64,000 nt of DNA from Candidatus Latescibacterota bacterium (GCA_965223905.1 CBDCXV010000011.1:1952001-2016000), one strand, 5' to 3'. Counted from the stretch's first letter, positions 7,944-15,975 are shown. The notes: generated from the letters alone by a model not told the origin. Made by a program: numbers and translations.

Positions 7944-8753
7944 GTGAACACGCAGCGGGCAATCGATCAGTACCACCGCGATGGCTACGTCGTGCTCGAG
8001 GATGCCGTAGCGCCGCGCAGCCTCGCAGCAGTGCAGGACGGCTACGAAGAGACCATCGTAGCAGCGATGAACCTGGGACGGGCCGAGCGCGATGAAGACA
8101 CGGGCTTCCTCGGCCAATACCGGTTCCAGAATCCACACCATCCCGAGATCGCGCGCTATCCCCTCATGGAAGCCCTGGCGGCGCCTGCCATCATGGACTT
8201 TGTCCAGGCGTTGTGCGGCGACGATGCCACCATGCACGGCATTGCGGCTTTTGCCATGAACCCGGAGTACGGCTACCGCGGTCCCTGGCATCGGGATTCC
8301 TACTTTGCCTGGGGCAAGGATTCAGCCTTTGAGCGGCAGATCAGGGAGATGAAGACCTTCCCGGTGACGCAGATTATGCTGGCCCTCGAGGACGACGCGA
8401 GCTTCTGGTTCGTTCCCGGCTCCCACAACCGCGCCAACACCGAGGAGGAGGAAGCTCGTTTCGAGGAGAGGCGGACGGCCAGCGACGAGATGTTCCCCGG
8501 CGCAATCCAGGTGCATGCCCGCGCCGGCAGCGCCGTGCCCTTCGACGCTCGCGGCATCCATCGCGGACTCAAACCGCCCGGTGAGAAACGTCGATCCCTC
8601 TTTATCGTGTACGGCACTGCCGAGTCAACGAAGGATTCGGTGGTCAGCGCCTGGGCTCAGGAGCCGGAGTACGCCGATCCCCGGTATCTCGCATCGTTGC
8701 CTCAAGCGTTTCGCGAGCCCGTCGAGAGGACGATGCAGGTCCTCAAAAGCTGA
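7944..8753 (+). CDS. Phytanoyl-CoA dioxygenase (PhyH) family protein
   Basis: YHRDGYVVL, WHRD, VPGSH, IHRG: Fe(II)/2OG HxD...H pattern. Confidence 0.85.
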   Translation: MNTQRAIDQYHRDGYVVLEDAVAPRSLAAVQDGYEETIVAAMNLGRAERDEDTGFLGQYRFQNPHHPEIARYPLMEALAAPAIMDFVQALCGDDATMHGIAAFAMNPEYGYRGPWHRDSYFAWGKDSAFERQIREMKTFPVTQIMLALEDDASFWFVPGSHNRANTEEEEARFEERRTASDEMFPGAIQVHARAGSAVPFDARGIHRGLKPPGEKRRSLFIVYGTAESTKDSVVSAWAQEPEYADPRYLASLPQAFREPVERTMQVLKS

Positions 8754-9303
8754 TAGATCTCACTCGCTATCAGGCGCACGGCCTCGCCGAATCCCGTGAA
8801 CTGTAGCGCCTCCCGGGCCTGTCGAATGCCCTCGAAAACGGCCTTCGATGTCCGGATCGGACGAATCCAGCAACCGCTTGACGCCTCAGCCGAAGCGCCG
8901 GCGGTGTGTAGGTCGCCGAGCACGTAGTTCTCGAATGAGATCACGGAGGACATCGGGTCTGTCGTCCACCCAATCGGGTTCTCTGCGCAGGAGGCCCGGA
9001 CCGCGGGGGCGGACGGGCGGTCCAGGAACCGATAAGCTGAAGGTCCTCGATTGAGGAAGGAGGAAAGGCGTTGAAGATCACCGACATCCGCTTCACGCAG
9101 GTGGAGGGCGTGCTCGCCCACGACGGGGAGCTATGGGAGTCGCGTGCGGCCGCGCCCATCGAGATCTATCCCGAATTCCGGGTCGAAGGCGGGGGGTACA
9201 CGCCCAGGACCCCCGAGGGAGACTACCGGATCGAGGCGGGAATTATGTATTTTACTACGCAAGGGTAATTTTAGTAATCTCATCCGCGAATTTAAAGATA
9301 ATA

Positions 9304-9312
9304 TGGTATAAT
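9304..9312 (+). promoter_or_regulatory. Extended -10 element TGGTATAAT in the left TIR, facing inward
   Basis: Exact TGnTATAAT consensus in an AT-rich context. Confidence 0.55.
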
Positions 9313-9423
9313 AATATAGAAGGAAGTGCAGAGAAATGGGATCTCCCCGTCCCTACTGTTTAGCCCGAACACGGAGGCGTGTCAAATTGGCACCGTGGGA
9401 TCGGGATCGATGCAAGCCTCATT

Positions 9424-9775
9424 TCTGGGTCTGCAAGCTGCCGCTGGGGGTGAGCAGGAATCATTTCGTTTGGTTGACAAGTTGGCAAGGCAAGATGGAC
9501 TCACTCCTGGGTCGGCGAGAGGGGGACCGGAGGCAACGAGCAGCAGCATATTATGCGTTCTCAAAGTCAGGCAAGTCCGCATCGTGCGATTCTCCGGACT
9601 GGCAGGCACGTCCCCCCTGGAGTCGGCACCCTGGATCGAGAAGGCCACCGCTCTGATCGAGGAGGGGATGCGCGAATTCCCCTGAGTCTGCAAAGCCGTC
9701 GTCGCCGGGGTGAAGCAGGAATCATTCCGTTTGGTCGACCCGTCGGCAAGCAGGATGACTGAGGATTCCTCGGGT
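9424..9775 (+). repeat. Diverged ~90-bp direct repeat pair (about 9424-9512 and 9681-9775), each with a hairpin
   Basis: GGGGTGAGCAGGAATCATTTCGTTTGGTTGAC versus GGGGTGAAGCAGGAATCATTCCGTTTGGTCGAC. Confidence 0.75.
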
Positions 9776-9834
9776 GCAGGCTGAGCTTCAGGCGCAAGAG
9801 GGGAGGCAGCCGGCAGCGGGATGTCCCTTGCTGA

Positions 9835-10822
9835 CTATTCGAAAAGCTTCGCCCTTTCCTTCCACCGATGATAGGTGAAGGGAATAGGAGGGATCTCCGT
9901 CCCCACCAGATCCCGATACGTCAGCCGTTTTCCCACCATCCCGGAAGCAAGCAGTTCCATCTGTTCCAGGATATCCATCCCTCGGGTATTGTACCTCCCT
10001 ACCATCTCGATGAGGTATCGGGGGAAATACTTGGGAGATATGTGGTGATAGATCCCGCGATAGATTCGTTTCGCCAGAGCCCAGAACGATTCGATGCCGT
10101 TCGTATGGACATCCCCTCTGACGTATTCATTCTTGTGGTTGACGGTTTCGTGCTTTCCCTGCCACCCGAAACCGTCACCATAAGCCGGGCCATTGTCGCT
10201 GTAAAGGGTGCCCTCTGGGGATAGGTGTTCCTCGGCGAAGGGGAACAAGATCTCGCGATCCGCATTGAGGATCACTTTGGCGGCCACCAAGCCGGTTTCC
10301 CGGTCAACCATTCCGGCCACGGCGGTATTACCATACCTCCATTTCCAGTGAAACTTCTTGTTGCGGTGTTTCTTTTTATCGTCTCCTCCGAAATAGGCTT
10401 CGTCTATCTCGGCTATCCTGCTGCGCAGCGGTTCCGGATCCGGCCAGGCTTCGCGGATGCGGTGCAGAAGGAACCACGCCGACCGATAATTGAGTTTGAG
10501 TTTGCGGCTCAGCTGCCTGGCGTTGATTCCCTTCGGATCGGAAACGTGCAAGTAGAAGGCGGTGGCCCATTTCCACAAAGGGATCTTGGAGTGGGACATT
10601 ACGGTTTTCGGTGCGAACGCTGAAGCGCTTTCGGCAGTCGCCGCACCAGTAGGGCATGGGATTGCGGTTGGGACATTCCGATACCATGCCGTAGCAGCCG
10701 CAGGGAGGGCAATGCAAGCCTCGTCTCCATAAGATCTTTTCGAACCATTCTTCTGCCGTTGCATTGTCTGAAAATTTAACGGTTAATTCGATACCATTGC
10801 CATCATCAATACCATTTTTCAT
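9835..10822 (-). pseudogene. IS1595-family transposase, frameshifted near 10605
   Basis: Zn ribbon CPPCG...CGDC in ORF 10376-10822. IDEAYFGG, YSD, VHTNGIESFW in ORF 9835-10764. One extra base in an A run joins RFSVRT to TVMSHSK. Confidence 0.9.
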
Positions 10823-11107
10823 TCCGATAACCTTCGCGCCGTGGAATACCGAACTTGAGACCAGCGGCCCTTACCAAAACGATGTGATTCACGCTCCCAT
10901 ATTATTCCTTTCGGTTAATGGGATGGTGACTCTGTCGGCGTTCACCGACAGATAGGGACTTGGGAAGCGGTAGCGGATGCTGACGGCTTCCTCTTTGATT
11001 CTCTTATTACAACCGGGTCGAACTAAAAGAAAATTCCCCTGAACCTTTAGTTTGAGGAGGCGGGTCTCAGGGGCGGAACTTTAATGACTGCTGGCAGGAA
11101 AACCTGG

Positions 11108-11485
11108 AGCCTGGCCCTCGCGGGTTGCCGGTTGGTGACCTCCACCACCGCTGGGGCTTCCCGTGTTGCGTCGGATCTCCTTGTATACATGCCGTCGCCA
11201 TTACCCCGGCGGGATCGTTGGGTGCTCGCGTTGCTCCCTTCCCCAACGACAGCGGCCTTCCCCGAAATCCAGGCGGGTCGGCTCACCGCATTACCCTTTT
11301 CGAGGCCTGCTCAGCGTTCACACACGTTACGGCCTGCATACTCGCCGAGTCGCCTTGCGACCCTCTACACCAGAGGCTTTGAAGATTTCGTTGCCTACGT
11401 CCCCACTTCGGTTGCTTCCGACTGGAGCAACAGTTGTCGGGTGGGACTTGCACCCACTGAAGATCCGCGCCTTTTCACGGCGCAC
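11108..11485 (-). ncRNA. Group II intron 5' fragment (domain I region), no RT ORF or domain V
   Basis: Begins GTGCGCCGTGAAAAGGCGC...GGGTGCAAGTCCC. Contains GCCGACCCGCC-loop-GGGGAAGGC and AACACGGGAAGCCC elements typical of bacterial group II introns. Confidence 0.8.
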
Positions 11486-11619
11486 TGGAGCCTTCAGGTT
11501 AGTTGAACCAACACCCTCGTTGTTCAATTACCTGTCCTTTGTTGTGTTGTGTTGGGATCAGTTGCGCCATTTCCCGAGAATGCCTATGTACGTACCTCGT
11601 ATTACGGGAGGTGGCGTTT

Positions 11620-11700
11620 GAGGCTGTAGCTCAGTGGAATTAGAGCGGGTTTGCTGCATCCGAAAGGCCAGGACGGGGGTTCGAATCCTTCTTGTCCTCA
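11620..11700 (+). ncRNA. tRNA-like cloverleaf (pseudo-tRNA) with enlarged anticodon loop
   Basis: TAGCTCAGTGGAATTAGAGC D-arm, GGGGG-TTCGAAT-CCTTC T-arm, GAGG/CCTC acceptor end, 12-nt loop GCTGCATCCGAA, no CCA. Confidence 0.65.
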
Positions 11701-11877
11701 GCGTCCTTCTTGTGAAGAGAGGGAGGGGGAGTCATGAGTAGTGTTGCTTGAAAAACATCAAGCGCACGGCTCACGAAGAGCCTTAAGGATCACAAACGTT
11801 ACACCAATCAGGAGGATACCTTTTGTCCTTACTGAAAGTGCTCAGGCGGCAGTTCCCTTCTCCCTCCCAAATTTGCC

Positions 11878-12087
11878 CATTGTGCGAAAGTATCCGAAAC
11901 CGGGTAAAGGGCGTCGGCCGATCCCGCCCGAGGTGATGTTGCGCATCTATTTCATGCAACAGTGGTATGGGCTCAGCGACCCGGCGATGGAGGACAGTCT
12001 GTATGACGTGGAGTCGATGCGTCGCTTTGCGGGAGTGGATCTGGACGGCATTCCGGATGAGACCACCCTGTGCAAGTTTCGCCATCT
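11878..12087 (+). pseudogene. IS5-family transposase internal fragment
   Basis: [10 protein letters not shown]...[24 protein letters not shown]...[13 protein letters not shown]. Confidence 0.85.
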
Positions 12088-12284
12088 ACCCATCCTTTCC
12101 GATTCGCAGAAGCGCACCTCGGTGACGATCCCGGGACGCTTGATTTTCAATAGGCGGGTATAGAACTGTTTGAGATCGGGCACGGAGGGCGTCCAACGAG
12201 GGCGGTTCCAACGAAAACCGATGGGCGACATTCCTTAGGATACCGCAACATGTTGGGGATACCCATACTCAACCCAGATGAGCC
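12088..12284 (-). mobile_element. Truncated ISL3 left end with transposase N-terminus
   Basis: GGCTCATCTGGGTTGAGTATGGG matches the ISL3 end at 13956. [15 protein letters not shown] matches DLKQFYARLLRIERP. Confidence 0.8.
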
Positions 12285-12382
12285 AAAAAAAGAGACTTGA
12301 CCCTCGGTAACTCAGAAGGTGTAGTAGAGTTCTCTCGCCATATCAATTTTTCTCGGAGCTGTTGTCAGTCAGGAGGATTTCA

Positions 12383-13318
12383 GTGCAACGACCCATCTTG
12401 CCCAAACTCAGCCTCACATTGGCAGGCTTCCTCTCTGTCGCAAACGCCCAACCTGCAGACCGCCTCTTTCCCATCATGCAGTTGACCGACCGCGACGTCG
12501 CCGAGATCGACGTTACGGACGGTTCAGTCGAGGACTGGGAAAATATCGTCGGGGAGCCCACGCTCACCCCGCTGGACTTCGCGGAAACCTTTTTCGCGGA
12601 ACCCTTTGTTGTTGGCTCGTACGATCCTTCTGATATGGATTTTCGCATCTGGCTTGGATGGCACGATGCCACTGACCGGATTTTCTTCGCCATGGAGCGG
12701 GTCGACGACGTATACGTCAACGAATTCGACCGCGAGGATGAGAATTACGTTATGGTTTTCCACGACTCCTCGGTGGAGTTTGCCGTTGACGGAGACCACT
12801 TGGGCGGCGTGGTGTTCCCCGAGGGATCTCCAGAGGAGTGGGTCTGGCAGGTGCAGGTTTTTACTGCGCTCGGGGAGGTTTTCGACGGAGGCTCCCAGGT
12901 TGGCCTCGTCCCCCATGCGTATTATTTGAGTGCGGAATGGCTCATTCAGCCTCCGTTTGCACACGGAGGCGGCGCAGTGGTTGGCGGATCCCCCATCTTC
13001 TCGGTGACGGAATTCTACGTGACGCCGTTTGACCGCTTTGAACCGACGGGGGATCCGGAAGACAGTGACGTGTCCGATCTGTTCGGCGGAAAGATCATCG
13101 GTTTCAACATTCGGGTATTCGACGTTGATGATCAGCCTGGGCTGGAGACCATCCACCAACTAGCAGTCCCCCCAGCCTACGAATCTTATAGGCATCTGTT
13201 GTCGATGTCAGCAGACTACTTCGCCGATGGGATTCTGATGACGCCGGATGGCTTGTCATCTGAAGATTCGGCGGTCGAAAGCGATTCCTGGGCCCGAATC
13301 AAGGCGACGATGGAATAG
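12383..13318 (+). CDS. Secreted CBM9/DOMON-like protein with C-terminal SAVESDSWARIKA motif (IS passenger)
   Basis: GTG after AGGAGG, signal peptide, DVTDGSVEDW, VDGDH, IGFNIRVFDVD. ORF intact. Confidence 0.7.
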   Translation: MQRPILPKLSLTLAGFLSVANAQPADRLFPIMQLTDRDVAEIDVTDGSVEDWENIVGEPTLTPLDFAETFFAEPFVVGSYDPSDMDFRIWLGWHDATDRIFFAMERVDDVYVNEFDREDENYVMVFHDSSVEFAVDGDHLGGVVFPEGSPEEWVWQVQVFTALGEVFDGGSQVGLVPHAYYLSAEWLIQPPFAHGGGAVVGGSPIFSVTEFYVTPFDRFEPTGDPEDSDVSDLFGGKIIGFNIRVFDVDDQPGLETIHQLAVPPAYESYRHLLSMSADYFADGILMTPDGLSSEDSAVESDSWARIKATME

Positions 13319-13418
13319 TACCTTCCCAGCCCGAAGGATACTCCGCTGCAAGCGGGTGTGGACTATCATCCTATGGACCTGTCCCAGTTCGACAGGTTCT
13401 CCCCCACCACCTTCTCCA

Positions 13419-13443
13419 TGAGGTGGACCCCATTCTTTGGACA
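13419..13443. mobile_element. Possible solitary IS3-family terminal repeat
   Basis: TGAGGTGGACCCCATTCTTTGGACA resembles IS3-family ends. No partner seen. Confidence 0.35.
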
Positions 13444-13457
13444 GCCGGACAGCAGAA

Positions 13458-13733
13458 TTAAGGTGGATTCATTATTTGCGCCCCGTCGTCTGGCGACCAC
13501 GATGCTCCCCCCGGGTTGGTTACCTGTGAAGGCAGCTGCACCTTCAGGTTTTTTGAACCGTCACGAGAGACAACACGGAACTCACTGGTCTTCCCGTCAA
13601 ACAATTCGTAGAGAATACGCTTGCCGTCCGGGGCCCAGGTTGGACCGGAAGCGCTGCCTGTTAACTCACCCGAAACCCTCTCCAGGTTGGAACCGTCCCT
13701 CTCCACACAGAAAACAAAAACTCGCCCATCCAT
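13458..13733 (-). pseudogene. TolB/PD40 beta-propeller fragment abutting the right TIR
   Basis: PTWAPDGKRILY, ASWSPD and DGSN repeats. Confidence 0.7.
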
Positions 13734-13955
13734 ATTATTATACCATATTATCTTTAAATTCGCGGAAGAGAATACTAAACTTACCCTTGCGCAGTTAAGT
13801 ACATAATCCCCATCGAGGCCGTGTTTGCCGAGGTCGACACGGACGAGGGGGTCACCGGTGTGGCCGGTCCGATTACGACGGACCAGGTCTCCACCATCGG
13901 ACAGTACCTCCCGCGTGGGGCCGCCGAGATACACTGCCACGAAGTGGTTTTTTCG

Positions 13956-15311
13956 GGCTCATCCGGTTTGAGAGTGGGCCCCCCCAAGATGTAGTGGTAT
14001 CATAGGGCTGCCGTCCCTGTCCCACCCTCATCGGGGAGTGCCGTCGTGGAAGACCTCAAGCAGTTCTATGCCCGTCTGTTGCGAATCGAGCGGCCCTGGA
14101 TCGTCATCGAGGTGCGGTTTCCGGACCAGGAGCGAGTCGACGTCTACGTGGATCATGAGCGCGGGATCAAGCTGCGCTGCCCTCGGTGCGACGCCTGGTG
14201 TCCCGTCTACGACCACTGCCCCGAGCGGGAATGGCGGCACCTGGACACGTGCGACGTGCCCACCTACGTCCATACCCGCCTGCCCCGGGTGCAGTGCAAG
14301 GTCCACGGCGTGCTGTCCATCGCCTCGGAGTGGGCCGAGCCCGGCTCGAATCTGACCCGGGCCCTGGAGGCCCACGTCATCGACTTGGCCAAGGAGGCCA
14401 GCCTGCAGGCGGTGAGCCGTCTCACCGGGCTCAGCTGGGACCGCTGTTGGGGGGTCCTGGGCCGCGCCGTCCGCCGGGGCCAGCGCCGCAAGGCGTGGAA
14501 GGTGCCGGCCCATCTCGGCGTCGACGAGAAGGCCTTCGCCAAACGTCATCAGTACATGACCCTGGTCTGTGACCTGGAGACCAAGAGCGTGGAATACGTG
14601 GCCGAGGGCCGCCGCTGGGAGAGCCTGGAGGAGTATTTCCTCCCCTTCGACGAGGAGGAGCTGGAGCGGATCGAGGCCATCTGTGTGGACATGCACGACC
14701 CCTACATCGCGGCCGTGCGAGCCTGGGTGCCCGACGCCCAGGACAAGATCGTGTTCGACAAGTTCCATGTCCTGCGTCTGATGAACGAGGCCGTCGACCG
14801 GGTGCGCCGCCAGGAGCACAAGAAGCTGCGGGCCCAGCACGACGAGGTGCTCAAGGGGACCAAGTATCTCTGGCTCTACCACCCCGACCACATCCCCGAG
14901 GCCCTGCTGCCCCGATTCGAGGAGCTGCGTCGCATGGACCTGCAGGTCAGCCGCGCCTGGGCCCTCAAGGAGAACTTGCGGCAACTGTGGACCTACCGCC
15001 GCGAGGGCTGGGCTCGTCGCTTCTTCCGACGCTGGTATTTCTGGGCCACCCATAGCCGGCTGCCGCCCGTGATCGCGGTGGCCCGCACCCTGAAGCGGCG
15101 GCTCGACAACATCCTGACCTACCTGCGACACCGGATCACCAACGCCCTCAACGAGTCCCTGAACGCCCAAGTGGAGAAGGTCAAGCGCATGGCCCGCGGC
15201 TATCGCAACCGCGCCCACTTCCAAACCGCCATCTACTTCCATTGCGGCGGACTCGACCTCTATCCACGCCCACAACATGTAGGGGCTACCCACAGTAATT
15301 CCCGATGAGCC
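13956..15311 (+). mobile_element. Complete ISL3-family insertion sequence, 1356 bp
   Basis: TIRs GGCTCATC...GTGGG at both ends. 8-bp TSD TTTTTTCG (13948-13955 and 15312-15319). Confidence 0.93.
14046..15308 (+). CDS. ISL3-family transposase
   Basis: CPRC zinc finger, LGVDEK, DMH, FDKFH, TNALNESLN, ARGYRN. Confidence 0.95.
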   Translation: MEDLKQFYARLLRIERPWIVIEVRFPDQERVDVYVDHERGIKLRCPRCDAWCPVYDHCPEREWRHLDTCDVPTYVHTRLPRVQCKVHGVLSIASEWAEPGSNLTRALEAHVIDLAKEASLQAVSRLTGLSWDRCWGVLGRAVRRGQRRKAWKVPAHLGVDEKAFAKRHQYMTLVCDLETKSVEYVAEGRRWESLEEYFLPFDEEELERIEAICVDMHDPYIAAVRAWVPDAQDKIVFDKFHVLRLMNEAVDRVRRQEHKKLRAQHDEVLKGTKYLWLYHPDHIPEALLPRFEELRRMDLQVSRAWALKENLRQLWTYRREGWARRFFRRWYFWATHSRLPPVIAVARTLKRRLDNILTYLRHRITNALNESLNAQVEKVKRMARGYRNRAHFQTAIYFHCGGLDLYPRPQHVGATHSNSR

Positions 15312-15975
15312 TTTTTTCGCCACGGCTCGGGAGCGGGCCGGGAGGGGATGGCAAAGAACCTGGAGCTGGTACGGGTTCTGCGGGAAAGCGTGGGCGAGGA
15401 CGTGGACATCATGTTCGACGCCTGGAACAGCTGGGATGTGCCCTACGCCATTGCCATGGGAGAGCGCATGGCCGAATACCGCCCGCGATGGCTGGAAGAG
15501 CCGGTCCCGCCCGACCGCATCGACAGCTACACCGCCATCCGCAGGGGGATCGGTTTTCCCGTCGCCGGCGGTGAGCACGAGTACACTCGCTGGGGTCACA
15601 GGGATTTGATCGAGGCGGGGGCAGTCGATGTGCTGCAGCCCGACATCTACTGGGCGGGTGGTCTCACAGAGGTTGCGAAAATCTGCACGCTGGCGTCTGT
15701 CAGCGAGCCGCAGGTGATTCCGCACGTCCATTCGGTGTCGGCGACCGTCCACCTGCTGGCTGCGCAGCCCCCGGATGTGTGTCCTCTGCTGGAGTATCTG
15801 CTCACCTGGAATCGGGTCAACCAGTTCTTTCTCAAGGACCCGATCAAACCCCGCAACGGTGAGGTTGCCTTGCCCGAAGGTCCGGGCATGGGAATGGAGC
15901 TCGACGAGGACAAAATCGTTTCCCGGCGGGAGCTGGAGTGGTGAGGACAGCCTGGCCCGTTTGCTCGAGTGAGGG

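Follow-up and report, generated by a model that had tools for sequence, protein, structure and literature searches.

Insertion sequences (ISs) of the IS1595 family are usually treated as elements of 0.7-3 kb, sometimes with a gene or two, and the described family members that carry passengers, the 'transporter ISs', are to our knowledge all under about 8 kb. Here we analyse an IS1595-family element at positions 9238-13811 of a 64,000-nucleotide stretch of DNA from a Candidatus Latescibacterota bacterium (GCA_965223905.1 CBDCXV010000011.1:1952001-2016000; this whole stretch is hereafter 'the window'), which a preliminary description of the sequence had put forward as a possibly undescribed gene-capture vehicle transcribing RNA-like cargo from both ends. 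The idea of a new kind of vehicle falls away, in that passenger-carrying IS1595 elements are already in print as 'transporter ISs', as PMC3129680 notes in citing Siguier, Gagnevin and Chandler 2009. The account of MTnSag1 of Streptococcus agalactiae and tISCpe8 of Clostridium perfringens in PMC5704250 gives both elements 25-bp inverted repeats (IRs) and reports a circular intermediate for MTnSag1, so that a copy-out route is possible, whilst the sections of PMC12561309 on ISApl4 describe an IS1016-group element of 712 bp with 14-bp IRs and 8-bp direct repeats, which forms the 5.8-kb Tn7560.

With the transporter ISs, as outlined in the source above, the window element shares an ISXO2/IS1595-type DDE transposase, an 8-bp target duplication, terminal inverted repeats (TIRs) with ends GGGAATTAT and passengers inside, but it differs in its 86-nt TIR, in an outward-read transposase gene that lies about 500 nt from the end behind subterminal repeats, in the position of the cargo between the far end and the start of the transposase gene, and in belonging to a lineage that reaches 48.5 kb. 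Its TIR had been called long for the family, which agrees with the 14-bp and 25-bp IRs given for relatives in the relevant sections of PMC12561309 and PMC5704250. MTnSag1 and tISCpe8 likewise combine an IS1595-family DDE transposase, terminal IRs, a target duplication and a passenger gene; those elements, in the description that PMC5704250 offers, are however small, carry a resistance gene and an origin of transfer (oriT) and are conjugatively mobilisable, and none of this was found here. ISApl4 is alike in family and in its 8-bp repeats, and two copies of it bracket 4.3 kb of cargo, but Tn7560 as presented in PMC12561309 consists of two complete ISs in direct orientation (pseudo-compound), whereas in the window element a single module is paired with a bare TIR, and its large relatives have inverted modules without inner ends.

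A relative in a Nitrosomonadaceae metagenome-assembled genome, for which 15 loci were returned (L047-L060 and L065), is a 2.77-kb IS with a transposase of 42% amino-acid (aa) identity and with an N6_N4 methylase (5.3e-40) and an EcoO109I-type endonuclease (6.6e-50) as passengers. Its TIRs start with GGGAATTATATA, four of the five copies inspected have matching 8-bp flanks, and TTGACA inside the TIR is followed 17 nt further on by TATAAT, directly ahead of the transposase gene. The terminal GGGAATTATATA, the 8-bp duplications and a promoter-like element inside the TIR are thus common to both, but the Nitrosomonadaceae IS has the canonical order of left IR, promoter, transposase, cargo and right IR (IRR), TIRs of 52 bp, AT-rich targets, and many uniform copies (99.7% identity of L047 both to L048 and to L053). 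Every IS copy of Tn10 or Tn5 possesses both an inside and an outside end and is able to move by itself; the large relatives of the window element similarly bear inverted terminal transposase modules around cargo, but no inner end was found beside any module. A literature search, which left out ISfinder, found no IS1595-family elements of 25-48 kb.

Boundaries and insertion site

A repeat search of the window returned an inverted pair with arms of 86 nt that are 90% complementary and that bound an element of 4,574 bp with ends reading GGGAATTAT and GGGGATTAT (Table 1). Compared without gaps, the two arms differ at nine TIR positions (4, 13, 16, 20, 32, 40, 45, 81 and 84), seven of which lie within the outer 45 nt, and they are identical over positions 46-80 (35 nt); the mismatch pattern given earlier for an 80-bp TIR is thereby reproduced within a somewhat longer arm. 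The exact 8-bp target duplication ATCGAGGC abuts both arms, the chance expectation for a single 8-mer match being 1 in 65,536. In silico excision of the element together with one copy of the duplication yields the open frame GDYRIEA-VFAEVDTDEG (the hyphen marks the junction), and across the junction the rejoined host N-terminus shows no gap relative to four homologous open reading frames (ORFs) of the enolase superfamily from other genomes (L068-L071, 409-439 aa). The C-terminal remainder of the host gene, at 15348-15944, matches MR_MLE_C (1.2e-54), which places it in the enolase superfamily; a Pfam search of the two short host-gene halves returned no family. Since the 8-bp flanks are exact and the host frame is restored colinearly, the whole 4,574 bp entered at one site, and the preliminary description was right about the duplication, the restored frame and a single insertion that carries non-transposition DNA.

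GC content is 0.52-0.60 within the element and 0.61-0.69 in its flanks, the low interior values reflecting the foreign character of the element. Within the inverted repeats lie a secreted-protein gene and a PD40 gene fragment that are unrelated to transposition, as in a transporter IS. Positions 9238-13811 very probably arose by a single insertion of an IS1595-family element of the passenger-carrying ('transporter') type, whose lineage, among the genomes searched, occurs only in one Latescibacterota genus, that of the window genome. By analogy with the family, the DDE transposase would bind both of the roughly 86-nt TIRs and would move everything between them, with an 8-bp staggered cut of the target.

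Transposase gene and module

Membership of the IS1595 family, as first proposed, is borne out by the match of the DDE frame to PF12762 (6.5e-31, 107.8 bits, cut-off 27), by that of an intact sister copy to NF033547 (163.4 bits, cut-off 75), and by 4,772 transposase homologues at E<=1e-20, the named ones among which are all labelled IS1595 family transposase. A CxxC...CxxC pattern, a possible zinc ribbon, is visible in the upstream frame, and sister copies score 20.1-26.3 bits against PF12760 (cut-off 25.4).

Alignment with the intact sister copy shows one extra A in the window transposase gene at about 10605-10608 (GAAAAC against GAAAC), which separates the zinc-ribbon part from the DDE part and leaves the window copy without an uninterrupted frame. 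Contigs from runs of three studies cover this site gap-free, and the extra A is therefore not an error of this assembly. The broken frame bears on the activity of the window copy and not on its family kinship. An IS1-type -1 slip would not be expected to mend the split, since the downstream frame is +1, and because of the split gene the window element is probably non-autonomous. Mobilisation in trans could come from the intact sister copy at G000 C11:~1207.3-1208.4 kb, which is 90% identical in DNA over 1,175 nt and encodes 352 aa from stop to stop (G000 is the window genome; G001 and G002, below, are sister genomes of the same Latescibacterota genus).

The module is about 1.9 kb long and consists of the TIR, a conserved leader, one or two subterminal repeats, the outward-read transposase gene and an upstream region; in the window element it occupies one end and is followed by the cargo and then by the bare 86-nt TIR. 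One module and a bare TIR are not the two complete IS copies of a compound transposon, and a genome search up to about 2 kb from each module found no inverted partner of the TIR. With up to six substitutions allowed, the terminal 20-mer has no reverse-complement match in the sister copies C11b and C2, and the TIR listings for the phylum and for the relatives are likewise without an inner TIR.

Two stretches behind the left TIR had been read as twin hairpins. They proved to be an 81% identical subterminal direct repeat without excess folding energy: shuffled sequences fold at least as well as the repeat regions and the leader do (z -0.2 to +1.1 for the repeats, on either strand). RNAalifold gave -0.05 kcal/mol for 23 leaders, with two pairs and no covariation, and hence no consensus RNA structure. 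The repeat core ATCATTYCGTTTGGTYGAC occurs once or twice, always oriented alike with respect to the terminus, at one end or both in five of the six elements searched (it was not found in the 34.4-kb element described below), and the subterminal repeats may be protein-binding sites. Contigs from two public runs, at low depth, join 9489 to 9751 and represent a minor form with one 261-nt repeat unit, which is either a population variant or another copy.

The same ends around larger elements

Matches to the left end were confined to one genus, in three of 41 genomes (the window's own and 40 relatives), with nine in G000, 11 in G001 and 12 in G002; the TIR core motif CCGCGAANTTAAANNNANTNTGGTATA likewise occurs in three of 168 genomes of the phylum, all from one genus, and two TIR patterns gave no match in JGI metagenome contigs. 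Seven further places in G000 carry the TIR or the left end. Wherever + and - ends face each other within 50 kb their 8-bp flanks are identical (7/7 pairs), the spans running from 4.6 to 48.5 kb (Table 1), and the 26 ends that were aligned comprise 12 from six of these seven pairs and 14 that are solitary. The preliminary description would have been overturned by a TIR that existed as this pair only or that always flanked only a transposase; since the TIR recurs around cargo, neither is the case.

Three G001 elements have the roughly 2-kb module at either end, the two copies inverted with respect to each other (in the 44.9-kb element they are 95.5% identical across 1.4 kb), and in the large elements of G002 and G000 one module is complete and the other partial. 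The core common to the large elements comprises RadC, a third, internal IS1595 transposase paralogue that is more distant (about 66-68% DNA identity) and SWIB-DnaJ, with a DUF3102 protein in some. Among the variable genes, the 34.4-kb element has type I restriction-modification, YgjP, an ORC/Cdc6-like kinase protein and WD40 proteins, the 44.9-kb element DndB/C/D/E, a PLD-helicase and GmrSD-like and NYN proteins, and the 40.4-kb element a 1,726-aa protein with a T9SS sorting domain, a C25 peptidase and IS21; these gene lists are incomplete, as ORFs were picked by a GC3 heuristic and five that straddle locus joins were left out.

Some solitary ends have features of their own. Two in G002, at C1:958103 (-) and C1:3233153 (+), have the common flank ATGCAATC, face away from each other and lie 2.27 Mb apart; they look like a former pair split by chromosomal rearrangement or by intramolecular transposition. 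At G000 C10:1708297-1712310 a solitary TIR with its leader is directly followed by PD40-like and 'SW..IK'-ending genes on the opposite strand and, about 4 kb on, by a partial TIR in direct orientation and a second occurrence of the 11-nt flank ACCCGATGGAT. A putative 4.0-kb element drawn at this C10 site from a repeated 8-mer has the direct-oriented partial TIR as its 'right end', and chance 8-mers are expected in 60 kb.

Cargo

Instead of a designed RNA payload, the cargo is a patchwork of dead mobile DNA next to which lies a stretch of host-type DNA. The host-type secreted-protein gene and the PD40 fragment are where they had been placed, and host paralogues of both were identified. The RNA-like items could also be located, but the group II intron is truncated, the tRNA-like element is below threshold and the supposed hairpins are the direct repeat described above.

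For the group II intron fragment, RF02003 was the only such model to match at E<=1 within 8500-15500, with no match for domain V/VI; there is no reverse-transcriptase ORF, and the ORFs across the region gave no Pfam family. Deep cover by the RNA library X12 at 11075-11424 has mismatches and likely comes from other introns. In the tRNA-like element the D and T arms are good, but the anticodon loop measures 12 nt, two of the acceptor pairs are weak and CCA is missing, whereas all host tRNAs shown encode either CCA or a partial 3' end. The tRNA-like element is without a DNA match in the rest of its genome and in 40 relatives, and global alignment with the 56 other genomic tRNAs was poor even at its best and revealed no close parent. 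ARAGORN found no tRNA gene in 12 loci, which make up five large sister elements, or in the Nitrosomonadaceae IS, and Rfam gave nothing at E<=1 in the five relatives' loci scanned for it; the element is not a conserved feature of the lineage. The sole exact contig of the RNA library, at 11520-11812 (293 nt, depth 3.2), spans the tRNA-like element and its flanks, DNA carry-over being possible, and elsewhere the window element lacks exact cover from that library.

The 318-aa secreted protein has no sequence match in Pfam, NCBIfam or the PDB. Its language-model look-alikes are CBM9_1-type clusters (score 0.97, 220/256 features shared), which are commonest in Latescibacterota, Gemmatimonadota and Poribacteria, and the label 'CBM9-like' is to be taken as a lead, not as a test. 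A tblastn search gave 75 segments in G000, a strongly expanded family, and the closest paralogues are four tandem copies on C6 (80-86% aa identity) and two on C1. The C6 array occupies G000 C6:3136-8868, and about 1.1 kb away from it lies a truncated solo TIR (positions about 3-54 only). The PD40 fragment is 85% identical in DNA to a gene at C10:2134070-2134298; on C10 a PD40 gene adjoins a paralogue of the secreted-protein family, and the order PD40, secreted-family member (33-34% aa identity), transposase recurs in the 24.9-kb element of G002. The two families are repeatedly found beside modules of this transposon, either by repeated capture or as ancestral cargo.

Alternative explanations

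Several observations weigh against a passenger-carrying IS1595-family insertion of a distinct lineage. The genome holds no second copy of the 4.6-kb form with other flanks, and no movement was seen. No empty site was found in the two sister genomes, in which the flanks 8950-9237 and 13812-13990 are without a usable match and the host gene is not conserved at the DNA level. The empty-site alleles that had been suggested as a check did not appear either, no public-run contig among the joints listed skipping 9238-13811, although this concerns contigs only and the absence proves nothing. The window TIRs differ at 9/86 positions, compared with 0-8 in all large elements but one (five of six, an indel being present in the remaining one), and the pair may be old or chimeric; that 86 nt suffice as an end, as the bare right TIR suggests, rests on this one element. 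The zinc-ribbon model PF12760 gives no match on the window frame 10376-10822. Placement in the ISNwi1 subgroup (ISNwi1/ISNwi1+), whose ISfinder end consensus ggnnatTAT the element ends fit, is tentative. The arrangement is nevertheless present in field data: contigs from runs of three studies cross the left junction with 0 differences (8800/8802-9312), and a contig of one study bridges the right junction (13737-13909), with the qualification that the best-matching run may be the source sample, so that field presence is not fully independent.

The locus might instead be the in situ wreck of a 25-48-kb member, shrunk to 4.6 kb by internal deletions and IS insertions, so that the present cargo never moved as such. 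This would suit the size of all other members flanked by target duplications (24.9-48.5 kb), the truncated IS5, ISL3 and intron pieces and frameshifted transposase of the interior, the nested ISs that the large elements also host (IS21, DDE_3 and DUF4372 types), and the PD40 and CBM9-like genes that adjoin transposase modules in the G002 24.9-kb element. We consider it rather unlikely, given that no DNA match to any large element exists right of about 11128, that the conserved core (RadC, the third transposase paralogue and SWIB-DnaJ) is entirely gone, and that the closest relatives of the secreted protein are the C6 and C1 chromosomal arrays and not the large-element genes. Next to no likelihood attaches to the idea that a solo TIR and a one-ended IS inserted independently and came to face each other by chance around host DNA: solitary ends are indeed common, 14 of the 26 aligned ends having no facing partner, but the identical 8-bp flanks and a host protein that is colinear once everything between them is removed already contradict it, the interior GC lies below that of the flanks, and the inner 35 nt of the two TIRs match each other, unlike most other copies.

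Different alternatives concern the extended -10-like motif TGGTATAAT, which does face inward in both TIRs, as the preliminary description held in proposing a dedicated gene-capture vehicle with two TIR promoters that transcribe the cargo from both ends. The motif is exact in 19 of the 26 family ends and TGGTATA is present in 25 of them, with the preceding 15 nt nearly invariant; at the bare right end it points in the same direction as the PD40 fragment; and an inward-facing promoter roughly this far from the terminus is plausibly ancestral, because in the related Nitrosomonadaceae IS the TTGACA and TATAAT that drive the transposase lie at a similar distance. The -35 region is poor, however, and a consensus promoter scan, which called five promoter-like sites in the element against 2.6 +/- 1.7 in shuffles, called none at TGGTATAAT. 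In this lineage the cargo lies between the bare end and the transposase gene; the motif at the module end points against that gene and is followed by about 500 nt of non-coding repeat. The left motif lies 3 kb away from the sole intact cargo gene, and the right motif converges with this gene. The leader lacks a conserved RNA fold, no exact contig of the RNA library X12 lies on either TIR or on the leader (this was the one library with any part of the stretch, 0.07 of words, and it allows no conclusion on promoter activity), and passenger-carrying IS1595 elements were described before; transcription of the cargo from both ends did not find support, and such a vehicle is highly improbable. The motif might alternatively be an antisense promoter that damps the outward-read transposase as a form of copy-number control, the bare-end copy being a by-product of TIR symmetry. 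Motif and transposase gene are convergent at every module end examined, and the motif and about 45 nt of leader behind it are strongly conserved; the transposase stop codon is about 500 nt off, however, and a small conserved hairpin with a T-run, terminator-like and 15-40 nt past the expected start, would permit only a very short RNA, so we regard it as unlikely. TGGTATAAT is best described as a conserved part of the end with possible promoter activity: it may still be a promoter, antisense to the transposase gene at the module end and reading into the cargo at the bare end, or it may just as well be retained solely because it belongs to the site bound by the transposase.

Wider significance

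The lineage sets itself apart by its 86-nt TIR, by an outward transposase behind subterminal repeats, by modules without inner ends and by sizes of 25-48 kb. Compared with the dimensions usual for IS1595-family ISs, the same 86-nt ends with 8-bp duplications here bracket 4.6 to 48.5 kb. As type I restriction-modification, Dnd and secreted proteins of large size are among what the larger elements carry, entire defence islands in this uncultured, host-associated phylum may be moved by no more than a simple transposase of the IS type. On a tentative view, which we hold to be possible but doubtful as a whole, the window element would be the smallest of an undescribed giant IS1595 lineage (24.9-48.5 kb) whose members are shuttles of defence and surface genes in sponge-type Latescibacterota; the inverted modules of about 2 kb would have no inner ends, so that only the whole island moves, a bare 86-nt TIR would be sufficient as an end, and TGGTATAAT would fire inward at both ends, so that the transposase is restrained where a module lies and the cargo is read into where the TIR is bare. 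Taken alone, the window element is a dead copy that serves chiefly as a 'minimal end' experiment made by nature; it is of interest mainly because its ends also bound gene-carrying elements seven- to ten-fold larger in the sister genomes.

Table 1. Features of the window element (window positions) and the seven elements bounded by facing ends with identical 8-bp flanks.
Feature	Position	Strand	Remarks
Left target duplication	9230..9237	.	ATCGAGGC
Left TIR	9238..9323	+	86 nt, starts GGGAATTAT; downstream of the transposase gene, hence IRR in IS nomenclature
Extended -10-like motif, left TIR	9304..9312	+	TGGTATAAT, inward-facing
Conserved leader behind TIR	9324..9400	+	Includes GGAC..GTCC and TGTTTAG; conservation in sequence only
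Subterminal repeat, copy 1	9442..9489	+	Core ATCATTYCGTTTGGTYGAC; hairpin 1 of the preliminary description
Subterminal repeat, copy 2	9703..9750	+	81% identical; 261 nt downstream of copy 1
Transposase gene, IS1595 family	9835..10822	-	Read towards the left end; zinc-ribbon frame 10376-10822, DDE frame 9835-10764
Conserved region upstream of transposase gene	10823..11090	-	About 250-270 nt; homology to other module copies stops at about 11090-11128
Group II intron fragment	11115..11485	-	Rfam RF02003 (D1-D4), 94.5 bits at 11322-11459; DNA similarity to two other genomic introns
tRNA-like element	11620..11700	+	ARAGORN tRNA-Cys(GCA); Rfam RF00005 22.2 bits (gathering score 29)
IS5-family transposase, N-terminal stub	11741..12100	+	DUF772 2.1e-20; NF033581 86 bits (cut-off 140)
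ISL3 transposase, N-terminal stub	12110..12231	-	80% complementary to the start of the adjoining ISL3 gene at 14045-14119
Secreted protein, 318 aa, intact	12362..13318	+	Signal-peptide-like N-terminus; CBM9-like by language-model look-alikes only
Short dispersed repeat	13413..13473	.	55-60 nt; at least 6 other genome places on C1, C2, C10 and C11, 82-98% identity
PD40 (TolB-like beta-propeller) gene, 3' fragment	13458..13725	-	5' side cut by the right TIR
Right TIR	13726..13811	-	Bare 86 nt, without leader, subterminal repeats or transposase gene
Extended -10-like motif, right TIR	13737..13745	-	TGGTATAAT, inward-facing
Right target duplication	13812..13819	.	ATCGAGGC
Element, 4.6 kb	G000 window 9238-13811		Duplication ATCGAGGC
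Element, 25.9 kb	G000 C11:1182940-1208810		Duplication AACGCCAC
Element, 24.9 kb	G002 C1:2741459-2766321		Duplication GGTCGATC
Element, 34.4 kb	G001 C3:1304677-1339122		Duplication GAACGAGG
Element, 40.4 kb	G001 C3:6017644-6058067		Duplication ACCAGAAC
Element, 44.9 kb	G001 C3:1941107-1986021		Duplication CTCGTAGC
Element, 48.5 kb	G001 C3:4234635-4283179		Duplication CGACGCGA; TIRs identical over 86 nt

Neighbouring sequences

The same enolase-superfamily gene also contains an ISL3 element, at window 13950-15340 and about 130 bp downstream of the IS1595 element, with a 420-aa transposase (14046-15308; PF01610, 1.2e-71). About 100 codons between the N- and C-terminal parts of this host gene seem to be lost. 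The enolase-superfamily C-terminal domain is strongly expanded in G000, with 24 matches at E<=1e-20.

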